DNA from: a bacterium
GTDB taxonomy: Bacteria > UBP7 > UBA6624 > JBBIMK01
Direction: 5' to 3'
DNA: 7,422 bases
Assembly (NCBI GenBank): GCA_037444445.1
Contig: JBBIMK010000028.1
Span: forward strand, 1-7,422
Of this stretch, positions 1 through 2,047 are shown one piece after another. The position numbers and the translations under genes were made by a program. Numbering within the stretch: position 1 is the stretch's first letter; each line of letters begins with the position of its first letter. The notes under the pieces are model-generated. The model saw nothing but the letters and a program-made list of their open reading frames with translations, made no database searches and was not told the DNA's origin.

Positions 1-35
1 CGTTATACGCCATGCCTGTGGGAGATGATGAATAA

Positions 36-494
36 ATGAGAAGAAAAATCAAGGTATATCTGGATACATCCGTAATATCAGCGTTGTTTGACCAGAGGAA
101 CCCAGAAAGAAGATGGTTTACCCAGTCATTTTTTGATGAGATACGCAATTTTGAGTCTTATATTTCTGATATTGTTAATATAGAGATTGATAGAACCCCA
201 AACCTTGTATTGAGAGATAAAATGAAAGAAGTTGCCTCGCAATTGCCTACTATTCCGCTGACCGATGATGTGGAATGGTTAGCAAATGAATATGTCCGCT
301 ACGGTGCTATACCTAAAGGATATCCTGAGGATGCATCTCATATCGCTATCGCTACTCTCTACGAAGTAGATTGTCTTGTTAGCTGGAATTTCAAGCATAT
401 TGTCCGGAGAAAGACAAAGAATATCGTAAGAATGGTAAATACCATTCATGGGCTACGAGAGATCGAAATATTAACACCAGCAGAACTGATGTAG
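36..494 (+). CDS. PIN-domain (VapC-like) putative ribonuclease, copy 1
   Basis: The 152-aa ORF has a PIN-like layout: KVYLDTSV (Asp10), IEID (Glu50), PEDASHIAIA (Asp99) and LVSWNFKHI near the C-terminus. A gap-free hand alignment with the 861-1319 paralog gives about 84/152 identities. The first 19 residues are identical despite several synonymous nucleotide differences, which indicates purifying selection. GGGAG lies upstream of the ATG. Confidence 0.8.
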   Translation: MRRKIKVYLDTSVISALFDQRNPERRWFTQSFFDEIRNFESYISDIVNIEIDRTPNLVLRDKMKEVASQLPTIPLTDDVEWLANEYVRYGAIPKGYPEDASHIAIATLYEVDCLVSWNFKHIVRRKTKNIVRMVNTIHGLREIEILTPAELM

Positions 495-505
495 GGGGTG
501 TGAAC

Positions 506-730
506 ATGCGCAAGAAGCTCCTGAAAAAGGAAATAAGCAAAATTACGAAAGAAATCCAAAAAGAATTTCCTGAGGATTCAGCATTACAAGAAGTTCATAT
601 TGCAAGAAAAATCATTGCAAAAGAAGCGGAAATGGCAGGAATGAGCTATATTAAATACATCCAATCATGGAAAGAAAAGCTTGAAAGGAAAGCCCGGGAT
701 AAAAACAATATCAGCGACAATGGAACATGA
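506..730 (+). CDS. Small charged protein of unrecognised family, putative cognate partner (antitoxin?) of the PIN protein, copy 1
   Basis: The ORF starts at ATG 506 (alternative GTG 500), 7 nt after GGGGG (494-498), which overlaps the PIN stop TAG (492-494). It shares FPxDxALQEVHxAR, GMS and KYI motifs with the small ORF at 1332-1517. It is Lys/Glu-rich and looks helical. I recognise no DNA-binding fold. Confidence 0.65.
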   Translation: MRKKLLKKEISKITKEIQKEFPEDSALQEVHIARKIIAKEAEMAGMSYIKYIQSWKEKLERKARDKNNISDNGT

Positions 731-739
731 ACATAGCAC

Positions 740-835
740 GGCGTATAACACAGCATAAAAGGTTCCCCCGATGTCCTTCGGGGTCACCCAAATTCCGCCT
801 TCGCCGGAACTTCTTTTATCCGCGAAACGTTAGGC
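740..835 (+). repeat. attC-like structured element A (3' end of unit 1)
   Basis: GTATAAC (743-749) is followed by a 5-nt spacer and ATAAAAG (755-761), which is the exact complement of CTTTTAT (813-819). The element ends in GTTAGGC (829-835), matching GTTRRRY. Internal hairpins are CCCCGA/TCGGGG (766-771/778-783) and TTCCG/CGGAA (793-797/805-809). It is homologous along its length to element B. Confidence 0.45.
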
Positions 836-860
836 GACATGCCTATAAGGAAAGAATTGA

Positions 861-1319
861 ATGAGAAGAAAGATTAAAGTATATTTAGATACATCAGTTA
901 TATCAGCACTGTTTGATGAAAGAAACCCTCGAAGGCAGTTCTTAACCCAACTTTTCTTTGAAAGGATAGAGGGTTTTGATGCCTGTGTGTCTGAAGTGGT
1001 CCTGGCAGAAATTGATGATACCAAAAACAAACGTTTGAGAGAGATGTTGAGGGAAACGGCGATTTCTTTTAAACTTTTGCCAATAGAGGAGGAAAGTAGA
1101 CAATTAGCTGAAGAATATGTAAGGCATAATGCTATCCCCTCAGATTACCCTGAAGATGCGTTACATATTTCTATTGCCACAGTAAATGCAATGGATTATT
1201 TGCTTAGCTGGAATTTTGAGCACATCGTTAAAGTTAAGACACGGAGGATTGTAAACATGGTAAATGCCTCTTCAGGCTATCCAGATTTAGAAATTATAAC
1301 GCCTGCGGAACTAATATAG
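861..1319 (+). CDS. PIN-domain (VapC-like) putative ribonuclease, copy 2 (paralog of 36-494)
   Basis: The 152-aa ORF aligns with copy 1 without gaps. The same residues are conserved: Asp10, Glu50, Asp99 and SWNFEH. AAGGAAAG lies 8-14 nt upstream of the ATG. Confidence 0.8.
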   Translation: MRRKIKVYLDTSVISALFDERNPRRQFLTQLFFERIEGFDACVSEVVLAEIDDTKNKRLREMLRETAISFKLLPIEEESRQLAEEYVRHNAIPSDYPEDALHISIATVNAMDYLLSWNFEHIVKVKTRRIVNMVNASSGYPDLEIITPAELI

Positions 1320-1331
1320 GAGGTGATAGCC

Positions 1332-1517
1332 ATGAAAAAAAAAGATAAGCTTTGGGAAAAAGTGAAAAAGGATTTTCCAAATGACCCCGCACTTCAGGAA
1401 GTTCATTATGCGCGCTTAAAAATTCATGAGGAAACAAAAGGAATGAGCCCGGATGAATTTGTGAAATATATCAAAAAAAAGGCAAATAATGTTCTGAAAC
1501 GAAGGAGGGGAATCTAA
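1332..1517 (+). CDS. Small charged protein, putative PIN partner, copy 2
   Basis: ATG 1332 sits 9 nt after GGAGG (1318-1322), which overlaps the PIN stop TAG (1317-1319). The ORF track's alternative start is GTG 1323. It contains FPNDPALQEVHYAR, GMS, KYI and a basic tail KRRRGI. Confidence 0.65.
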   Translation: MKKKDKLWEKVKKDFPNDPALQEVHYARLKIHEETKGMSPDEFVKYIKKKANNVLKRRRGI

Positions 1518-1534
1518 AATGGAACCGTCACTTC

Positions 1535-1655
1535 ATATAACGCCGCATCTGCCTGCATCCGCAGGACAGGCAGGGAAAAGTCTCGCCCCGATAACCATCG
1601 GGCTCACCCAGATTTTTGCTTTGCAAAACCTTCTGTTATGCCGGGAACGTTGGGC
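1535..1655 (+). repeat. attC-like structured element B (3' end of unit 2)
   Basis: It begins ATATAAC (1535-1541) and ends GTTGGGC (1649-1655). Hairpins are CCCGAT/ATCGGG (1587-1592/1597-1602) and TTTTGC/GCAAAA (1614-1619/1623-1628). It aligns with element A, with an extra hairpin inserted at ~1549-1569 (CCTGC-ATCC-GCAGG core). Confidence 0.45.
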
Positions 1656-1678
1656 GAAATTGTCGGTGGGGTGTGTAT

Positions 1679-2047
1679 ATGACACCTGAACTGAAGAAAC
1701 CTCGTGTCTTTCGTCTTCTCTGTGAAGATGCCCTGAAAATCCAACACACGCCTTTCGGCAAGGTCGGAAGGGTTTTCAAGGGCAAGGGGCTTGAAGCAGT
1801 CTGGGTGTCCAAACAGGAGGAAGCCATAGACCCTGAATGGTTCTCCCAGCCCATGGTGGACCTCATCGTTGTTCTGCAGGGTCAACTTCGCGTGGAATTT
1901 GAGCCCCGAACTGGTGTCGGAGGTCCTCTGGTGTTAGACCCTGGAGACCTTCTGGTTCTTCCTCCCAACACCCGTTGCCGGGCGTATCGTTGGCCACGGG
2001 ATAGGAAAGAGGCAACGGTATTTTTAGCCGTTTATCCTGCGGAATAA
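1679..2047 (+). CDS. Cupin-fold-like small protein (122 aa from ATG 1679)
   Basis: ATG 1679 is preceded by GGTGGGG (1666-1672). The segment VVLQGQLRVEF...GDLLVLPPNTRCRAYRW resembles the two beta-strand motifs of small cupins, but the usual metal-binding His residues are not evident. The TTG 1616 extension in the ORF track would run through element B. Confidence 0.55.
   Translation: MTPELKKPRVFRLLCEDALKIQHTPFGKVGRVFKGKGLEAVWVSKQEEAIDPEWFSQPMVDLIVVLQGQLRVEFEPRTGVGGPLVLDPGDLLVLPPNTRCRAYRWPRDRKEATVFLAVYPAE

Follow-up and report, generated by a model that had tools for sequence, protein, structure and literature searches.

Two PIN genes, each followed by a small basic partner

The DNA studied here, referred to as the window, comprises positions 1 to 7,422 of contig JBBIMK010000028.1 from the bacterial assembly GCA_037444445.1. 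Near its left end lie two modules of the same design, each made up of a gene for a PIN-domain protein and, immediately downstream on the same strand, a small open reading frame (ORF) that encodes what we call the partner. The modules are integron gene cassettes flanked by attC sites, and both are probably toxin-antitoxin (TA) modules with a new family of antitoxin. The four genes are as follows.

36..494, + strand: PIN1, 152 amino acids (aa), VapC-like PIN-domain protein with D10, E50, D99, and N118
506..730, + strand: partner 1, 74 aa, isoelectric point (pI) 9.7; Shine-Dalgarno sequence GGGGG at 494-498, overlapping the PIN1 stop codon
861..1319, + strand: PIN2, 152 aa, VapC-like PIN-domain protein
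1332..1517, + strand: partner 2, 61 aa, pI 10.0, predicted three-helix bundle; Shine-Dalgarno sequence GGAGG at 1319-1323, overlapping the PIN2 stop codon

The two PIN proteins align without gaps and are identical at 84 of 152 positions (55%; BLASTP E value, 7e-61), which agrees with the hand count of a first-pass annotation of the window, as do the coordinates. In each module the small ORF starts 11 to 12 nt past the PIN stop codon. The strings TAGGGGGTG (492-500) and TAGGAGGTG (1317-1325), where that annotation had seen the ribosome-binding site of the small ORF overlap the PIN stop, match the sequence. The most plausible partner starts are the ATG codons at 506 and 1332, 7 to 8 nt past the G-rich Shine-Dalgarno sequence. 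The resulting lengths of 74 and 61 aa are those recorded in the public protein collection (P0121 and P0122), and the GTG codons at 500 and 1323, the alternative starts in the ORF list, fall within the Shine-Dalgarno sequence itself.

The partners are identical at 21 of 46 positions across their motif region (E value, 4e-11). The motif reported for them, FP(E/N)D(S/P)ALQEVH(I/Y)AR (FPxDxALQEVHxAR) followed by GMS and KYI, is found in both. The PIN proteins are acidic (pI 6.3 and 5.3) and the partners strongly basic. An Rfam scan returned nothing significant.

The PIN proteins resemble VapC toxins

The PIN2 sequence is recognized only weakly by the Pfam PIN model (PF01850), with a score of 30.2 bits against a gathering threshold of 23.6. 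No NCBIfam model reached its cutoff for either PIN, and a sequence search of the PDB detected no relative of this PIN clade. Structure was more informative. An AlphaFold2 model of PIN2, built from an alignment of 84 homologues, has a pLDDT (predicted local distance difference test score) of 96.5, and the top 31 Foldseek matches to this model in the PDB are all PIN-domain proteins (probability, 1.00; template modeling [TM] score, 0.5 to 0.7), most of them VapC toxins from TA complexes. The best structural neighbors are the VapC toxins of solved VapBC/FitAB complexes (5ecd, 6a7v, 3h87, and 2bsq), with TM scores of 0.6 to 0.7 and 10 to 19% sequence identity.

Residues D10, E50, D99, and N118 (the last within an SWNF motif) are invariant or at least 90% conserved across the 84 sequences, and both window copies have all four. 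The PINs are thus divergent members of the VapC-like group and are probably catalytically competent, and from the fold and the conserved D10/E50/D99/N118 site they would be expected to act as metal-dependent ribonucleases.

The partner defines a widespread protein family without a recognized domain

A profile built from the two window small proteins retrieves 232 proteins. None carries a Pfam domain, and where a source name is given, as it is for a few, that name is "hypothetical." Searched exhaustively with HMMER, 1.84 billion cluster representatives yielded 184 clusters of the family at 50% identity, and nearly all of these are stand-alone proteins of 45 to 100 aa; the few longer members have no Pfam domains and hence provide no informative fusion. 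Values of dN/dS between the window partners and their closest relatives are 0.05 to 0.25, and purifying selection acts on PIN and partner genes alike. The partners are therefore real proteins under selection, as the first reading of the sequence had argued from the shared motif. The nearest relatives of partner 1 are 52 to 61% identical to it. Partner 2 is 72 to 75% identical over the full ORF to the partners of three related loci (L001, L002, and L003; related loci are numbered with the prefix L) and 79 to 89% identical across the core aligned by the hidden Markov model (HMM).

AlphaFold2 predicts partner 2 to be a compact three-helix bundle (helices at residues 3-14, 19-34, and 40-58; pLDDT, 88). 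In this model the FPxD motif makes the turn from helix 1 into helix 2, and helix 2 bears the invariant E, H, and R residues.

We found no similarity to any known antitoxin, in line with the suggestion that the partner has no recognized antitoxin family or DNA-binding domain. Pfam gave no family at an E value of ≤1 for the window partners and none at ≤5 for distant ones. There was no NCBIfam or PADLOC match for the window proteins or for distant members, and a profile search of the PDB gave nothing at an E value below 0.4. Foldseek with the partner model against the PDB and viral models gave no match below an E value of about 1.5 (best, ~1.5 to 2.7). Neither the window partners nor the distant ones have an RHH, AbrB, HTH, or Phd domain by Pfam or NCBIfam, and no partner matched AbrB/MazE, RHH/CopG, Phd/YefM, Xre-HTH, COG2886, DUF433, DUF2281, or HicB. 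A weak recurrent NCBIfam match, MXAN_5187_C_dom (E value, about 0.04), was rejected as not significant. Distant members carry ~20 to 25 additional N-terminal residues (YFDYQKVAKDMKMP...), with a faint match to HTH_25 (E value, 0.056).

Separately, the partner profile weakly matched a 742-aa TPR-like repeat protein (P0257) through its ...YEQIQRDFPNNVVARNGYAEVLK... repeats. From this match, the part of the partner that runs from helix 1 through the FPxD turn into helix 2 may be similar to one helical hairpin of the TPR type.

Every PIN surveyed adjoins a partner, and toxin-first order is the rule

A scan of one genome per species recovered at least 575 relatives of the PIN, from species-level genomes of many bacterial and archaeal phyla. 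We surveyed pairing in 82 PINs, namely, those of 80 of these loci and the two window copies. By record title, 23 of the 80 loci are archaeal (ANME-1/2, Asgard, Thermoplasmata, and others), and the rest belong to many bacterial phyla.

With the first partner HMM, a partner was found directly downstream, on the same strand, in 54 loci. A second HMM, seeded with distant small ORFs bearing the motif EFPxDxMMxELHxxRA, recovered all first-round members and brought the count to 65 downstream and 11 upstream partners. The remaining six PINs are followed by a diverged downstream ORF, assigned by inspection of its core motif (MMxxLHEIR), which reads ...DDMMAGLHEIR... or ...FMKELHEIREKH.... All 82 PINs therefore adjoin a partner (76 by HMM and 6 by motif), 71 with the partner downstream and 11 with it upstream, and no intact PIN lacked one. 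A survey of homologs for conserved gene order had been proposed together with the first-pass annotation, whose reading would have been refuted by a general lack of the downstream ORF next to PIN homologs.

Toxin-first order is thus the rule but is not fixed, and the earlier description of a reversed order stands as the prevailing arrangement and fails as an invariant one. Toxin-first PIN modules with non-VapB or "hypothetical" partners had also been recorded before, among them PIN3-HicB and slr1383-ssr2317 of Synechocystis (PMC4963859).

The close spacing seen in the window is a property of the family. In the 55 modules whose partner start could be assigned automatically, the median gap between PIN stop and partner start is 10 nt; it is ≤20 nt in 52 of them, and 49 have a Shine-Dalgarno-like word. 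PIN and partner also vary together: their distance matrices correlate (Mantel r = 0.774), and none of 2,000 permutations gave an equally high value.

Two loci have a disrupted PIN and an intact downstream partner. In L032 (6001-6459), W117, the invariant Trp of the SWNF motif, is replaced by a stop codon, and in L074 (5992-6800) the PIN C terminus is frameshifted. Several genomes hold multiple copies of the module. The genes adjoining it vary from locus to locus, with no conserved third gene. Distant relatives with the same layout occur on plasmids, next to a rep gene in Leptospira interrogans and on a Thiodictyon plasmid; in both, the small ORF is "hypothetical" or unannotated. The PIN was found in no phage record. 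PADLOC-DB v2 had no match for the pair, the sole match being a weak one between PIN2 and the PIN part of a pAgo model (E value, 5.8e-5).

Each module is an integron gene cassette

The first-pass annotation had proposed a cassette-array setting for the modules, and we found attC sites bounding both. Each module is an integron gene cassette. The sites and cassettes are listed below.

2..8, + strand: GTTATAC, the R' box of the preceding attC; start of cassette 1 at base 3 (G|TT crossover)
3..829, + strand: integron gene cassette 1 (PIN1, partner 1, and own attC); end complementarity 13/16; cross-host homology from G|TTATAC
743..835, + strand: attC1 (R'' GTATAAC ... R' GTTAGGC), 93 nt; aligns with eight attCs of other loci
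830..1649, + strand: integron gene cassette 2 (PIN2, partner 2, and own attC), between two AACGTTRRRY boxes
1535..1655, + strand: attC2 (R'' ATATAAC ... R' GTTGGGC), 121 nt; last attC of the array, with a 75-nt stretch 72% identical to attC1

The string AACGTTRRRY closes a structured repeat after both modules (826-835 and 1646-1655), where two occurrences were found and 0.1 was expected. Both sites have the R'' (RYYYAAC) and R' (GTTRRRY) boxes of an attC, flanking an imperfect palindrome with an L-stem. Bases 2-15 are complementary to bases 736-749 at 13 of 14 positions, as is characteristic of cassettes in which the 5' end consists of what is left of the cassette's own attC.

We extended this comparison of cassette ends to the 76 HMM-paired modules, scoring the upstream GTT-word against the downstream AAC-word out of 16 positions, with mismatched upstream and downstream pairs as the null. 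The null mean was 5.0, and 0.4% of null comparisons reached 13. The highest scores were those of L015 (15), L001 and L017 (14 each), and window cassette 1 and L032 (13 each); L049 and the partner-first L080 scored 12, L035 scored 11, and window cassette 2 scored 9.

Cassette ends are also common to distant hosts. The window shares the end words GTTATACGCCATGCCT and GGCACGGCGTATAAC with metagenome-assembled genomes (MAGs) labeled ANME-1 (L015, L017, and L070) and with a Myxococcota MAG (L032). The start word of cassette 1, GTTATACGCCATGCCT, recurs in L015, L017, and L032, and the attCs of L032 belong to the same attC family as those of the window. Homology between hosts begins exactly at G|TTATAC and extends to the following G|TT, so that the coding strand corresponds to the top strand of the cassette.

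The attC hairpin is conserved in structure. Across nine attCs from six loci, in which we scored the R-box, L-box, and inner helices, 91% of cells are paired, compared with 77% in shuffles and 31 to 47% with slid partners. Thirteen pairs show compensatory changes on both sides, and none of 500 shuffles scored as high.

In these attCs the asymmetry is reversed. Unpaired spacers on the top strand measure 1 to 5 nt after AAC and 4 to 9 nt before GTT, the latter usually ending in GAAC, which creates an AACGTT palindrome at the crossover. This is the case for both window sites, L001 5880-5968, L015 3396-3480, L017 6670-6751, L032 5869-5977, and L035 5073-5158. The R''-L'' arm is where a canonical attC has its extrahelical bases (opposite the AAC triplet on the bottom strand; PMC5027507); the attCs studied here instead have their additional unpaired bases on the R' side. 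We considered that the attCs might be inverted, with the coding strand as the bottom strand, and rejected this because homology breaks at the right-hand G|TT and the integrase/attI-like region is upstream.

A simple attC finder run across all loci did not rise above shuffled background overall. A metagenome scan with the attC pattern CCGATNNCCNTCGGGNTCACCCNNATT gave four matches, all inside unrelated sequence without nearby attC boxes. Most other homologous loci have no attC boxes; the module is therefore a mobile two-gene unit for which integrons are one among several vehicles.

The modules probably act as toxin-antitoxin cassettes

On balance, we favor the reading of the two modules as toxin-first, translationally coupled, VapC-type type II addiction cassettes with a new antitoxin family, carried in an integron. 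Under this reading, the first gene would encode a VapC-like, metal-dependent PIN ribonuclease that is translated first, and the second would be translated by coupling through the Shine-Dalgarno sequence overlapping the PIN stop codon. The basic three-helix partner would bind the acidic PIN and block its active site. FitA and VapB insert an Arg into the PIN that they bind, and by analogy the candidate plug here is formed by the invariant E, H, and R residues of helix 2.

The leader between the cassette 5' boundary and the PIN start is only ~30 nt in the window cassettes. This leaves no room for a promoter or operator, and both genes must therefore be transcribed from upstream, whether from an integron promoter, by read-through, or from a promoter within the preceding attC. 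With neither a promoter/operator of its own nor a DNA-binding module, the pair would have its toxin:antitoxin ratio set by translation. Loss of the cassette could then free a longer-lived PIN, so that deletion would be penalized and the array stabilized. The two window copies are two diverged lineages of this cassette, each with its own coevolved partner.

Several observations weigh against this interpretation. Scans for promoters and terminators found nothing significant. No DNA-binding domain or operator is evident, which leaves classical autoregulation unsupported; this lowers the case for a canonical vapBC locus, not the case that the pair works like a TA system. PIN1 scores 22.9 bits with Pfam PIN, just under the cutoff of 23.6, and the end complementarity of window cassette 2 (9/16) is not significant. 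The taxon labels attached to the related loci derive from metagenome bins and could be mistaken.

Other difficulties concern the partner itself. As a rule, antitoxins evolve more rapidly than toxins. Within the PIN2 lineage, partner identity across the HMM-aligned core is 89% where PIN identity is 79% (L003) and again 89% where PIN identity is 68% (L002). Over the full ORF these partners are 74 to 75% identical, so that the excess of partner over PIN conservation is clear for L002 and not for L003; in the PIN1 lineage the partner is less conserved than the PIN. Classical labile antitoxins, moreover, are usually acidic, partly disordered, and fast-evolving, and a compact, confidently folded, basic, and very conserved partner is not typical of them. 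Finally, the fourth active-site position of the PIN is Asn instead of an acidic residue, as it also is in Haemophilus influenzae VapC1 (N117; PMC5499597).

A more far-reaching form of the TA reading would have a new partner family of Bacteria and Archaea control VapC-like PINs without a DNA-binding module, with the pair acting as a dedicated "platform guard" of one integron class, a promoterless cassette that moves between Bacteria and Archaea, tends to be integrase-proximal, and through its expression reports on array integrity. In its most radical version, the basic three-helix partner would target the PIN to nucleic acid instead of inhibiting it. We regard this proposal, in either version, as rather unlikely.

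Alternative explanations for the modules

The principal rival to the TA reading, which we consider unlikely, would make the partner a nucleic-acid-binding subunit that confers specificity on, or activates, a two-subunit nuclease, such as a defense or RNA-processing effector. Such a role would suit a partner with a pI of about 10 and a Lys/Arg-rich tail, compactly folded, at least as conserved as the PIN in the PIN2 lineage, and free of any antitoxin-family signature. Its top structural matches, too weak to be significant (E value, >2), are SANT/Myb-type three-helix domains. The variable gene order, the multicopy distribution, and the plasmid and integron contexts nevertheless fit a TA system better, as do the two loci that keep an intact partner beside a broken PIN, and an effector complex finds no support in a PADLOC match or a conserved third gene.

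Equally hard to favor is a partner that, despite its new fold, works as a classical VapB-type antitoxin, neutralizing the PIN and also binding the promoter/operator DNA of its own operon. The partner is a basic three-helix protein, the N-terminal extension of distant members has its faint HTH_25 match, and in 11 modules the partner lies upstream, as in canonical vapBC. Against this, the ~30 nt between crossover and PIN start has no space for an operator in the window cassettes, no HTH, RHH, or AbrB domain was detected, and the partner helices are long for an HTH.

Less probable still is a tandem duplication in this genome, in which the modules would be diverging paralogues and the repeats merely duplicated intergenic DNA, much as the first-pass annotation had described a duplicated module. 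The unit does recur at a spacing of 820 to 825 nt, including the 75-nt intergenic stretch, and the two PIN genes share 80% identity in their first 60 nt. Yet each copy is closer to copies in other organisms than to its neighbor. PIN2 is 79% identical to the L003 copy, from a MAG labeled deltaproteobacterial, and PIN1 is 68% identical to the L004 copy, from Dehalococcoidia, compared with 55% between the two window PINs. The partners behave alike, at 89% across the aligned core for L003 and 61% for L004, compared with 42% between the window copies. The PIN1 and PIN2 genes have 61% nucleotide identity and are saturated at third codon positions (42%), while the intergenic repeat between them is 72% identical. 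The repeats, furthermore, show attC boxes, a hairpin with covariation, and complementarity at the cassette ends, and in other genomes they are found again beside unrelated genes and integrases. Judged by these sequence relationships, the window copies are two separately acquired lineages of one module family and not a local duplication, because each has closer relatives elsewhere.

That the small ORFs are chance open frames in the A/G-rich DNA downstream of PIN genes, as their shortness (61 and 74 aa), Lys/Glu-rich composition, and lack of database annotation might suggest, is already refuted by the conservation data, with 232 homologues in 184 clusters at 50% identity, dN/dS values of 0.05 to 0.25, a model pLDDT of 88, and conserved position, spacing, and Shine-Dalgarno sequence.

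Relation to known systems

The PINs share their fold and catalytic residues with the toxins of VapBC systems (Shigella VapBC, Mycobacterium tuberculosis VapBC11, and Neisseria FitAB), and the modules are, like VapBC loci, tightly coupled two-gene operons that are multicopy, horizontally mobile, and found on plasmids and in integrons. Unlike VapB, the partner is mostly encoded downstream and is a compact basic three-helix protein without an AbrB, RHH, Phd, or HTH domain and without detectable similarity to any VapB, and the PIN clade has no sequence relative in the PDB.

The gene order of the window modules is shared with toxin-first type II systems (HigBA, HicAB, and MqsRA, as well as PIN3-HicB and slr1383-ssr2317). 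HigA, HicB, and MqsA, however, have recognizable DNA-binding domains, and the partner has none. The likeness noted to slr1383-ssr2317 is one of gene order and partner type.

The TA cassettes of the Vibrio cholerae superintegron include RelBE, ParDE, HigBA, and Phd-Doc, and described TA cassettes usually have their own promoter and a canonical antitoxin. The window modules are similar to the TA cassettes of chromosomal integrons in being two-gene TA-like units bounded by attC sites amid unrelated cassettes, with a presumed role in array stabilization. They differ from described TA cassettes in their ~30-nt 5' leader and new partner family, and in related loci the PIN cassette is often close to the integrase. 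TA cassettes are common in bacterial and archaeal integrons, where a stabilizing role is documented for Vibrio superintegrons and proposed for archaeal ones (PMC9668308, PMC10661359). VapC-AbrB and PIN-RHH cassettes occur in oral Treponema integrons (PMC6557892).

What appears to be new here is the partner family, unannotated despite its breadth, together with its fold and its absence of a DNA-binding module. The recurrence of the module as an often integrase-proximal cassette in MAGs labeled as bacteria and as archaea also appears to be new; this sharing between domains rests on the taxonomy labels of metagenome bins.

The constant companion of a PIN clade carried by at least 575 species-level genomes is thus annotated everywhere as a "hypothetical protein." If the TA reading is correct, the VapBC world gains a new antitoxin fold, and the modules would show how a toxin-first system with neither an autoregulator nor its own promoter keeps a safe toxin:antitoxin ratio. 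With the same ends in ANME-1-labeled and bacterial-labeled MAGs, the module would be a marker cassette for integron-mediated gene flow between Bacteria and Archaea, and the two diverged pairs side by side are a natural test bed for cognate specificity.

Integrases, related arrays, and the window flank

The window starts inside the array and contains no integrase. Related loci do have integron-type tyrosine recombinases, placed upstream of the PIN cassette. In L017, a recombinase (Phage_int_SAM_4 plus Phage_integrase) is directly upstream on the same strand, followed by a repeat-rich attI-like region and then by the PIN cassette as the first of the array. The array of L001/L088 begins with a recombinase 63 to 65% identical to that of L017, followed by DUF454, catalase, PIN plus partner, an 86-aa ORF plus DUF6036, and LVIVD. 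Against integron-integrase models, the upstream recombinase of related loci scores 166 bits (NF040815) and 144 bits (TIGR02249), both below the cutoffs. Stretches homologous to this integrase occur within ~1.3 kb upstream of the PIN cassette in L020, L032, and L080. Integrons of the "inverted integrase" group, reportedly described by Boucher et al. in 2007, have the integrase oriented as the cassettes are; L017 and L001/L088 likewise have the integrase and cassette ORFs on one strand.

The recombinases of L017 (4749-5812; ANME-1-labeled MAG) and L088 (1242-2154, equivalent to L001 2242-3151; "uncultured bacterium") each read as two overlapping ORFs in different frames. The split seen in L088 recurs in three separate metagenome assemblies (L088, L089, and L092) and may be real, reflecting a pseudogene or recoding and not a sequencing error.

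Upstream of the PIN cassette, four ANME-1 loci have repeated GGATATA(A/C)-type words in a region ending ...GGATATACCGAA|GTTAT. From its sequence, this region looks like an attI with integrase-binding direct repeats, which would make the PIN cassette the first of the array. The attI-like regions are as follows.

L017: 5812-6000
L015: 2540-2730
L049: 5800-5990
L056: 5800-5980

The L088 array also holds an unusually large catalase cassette (504 aa). The cassette adjoining its PIN cassette (L088 5859-6688) has its own attC and contains two genes, an 86-aa ORF and, after it, one for a 189-aa protein that faintly matches DUF6036; this could be a second TA-like pair.

In the window, the cassette array ends at 1655, beyond which GC content rises from 40% to 50% and chromosomal genes follow. 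These encode a cupin, a 73-aa ORF, a Zn-alcohol dehydrogenase, an ABC-2 transporter pair, an RmlD-type (dTDP-4-dehydrorhamnose) reductase, and a TrmO-family (TsaA-like) protein. The cupin-like ORF (1679-2047; weak Cupin_3 and Cupin_6 matches) and the acidic 73-aa ORF (2075-2296; no family match) are 27 nt apart. A related Logan contig, L081, keeps this pair. It has the same downstream genes and breaks inside a repeat matching the last attC (window 1649-1700, L081 1-100), in what looks like an assembly break at the repeat.

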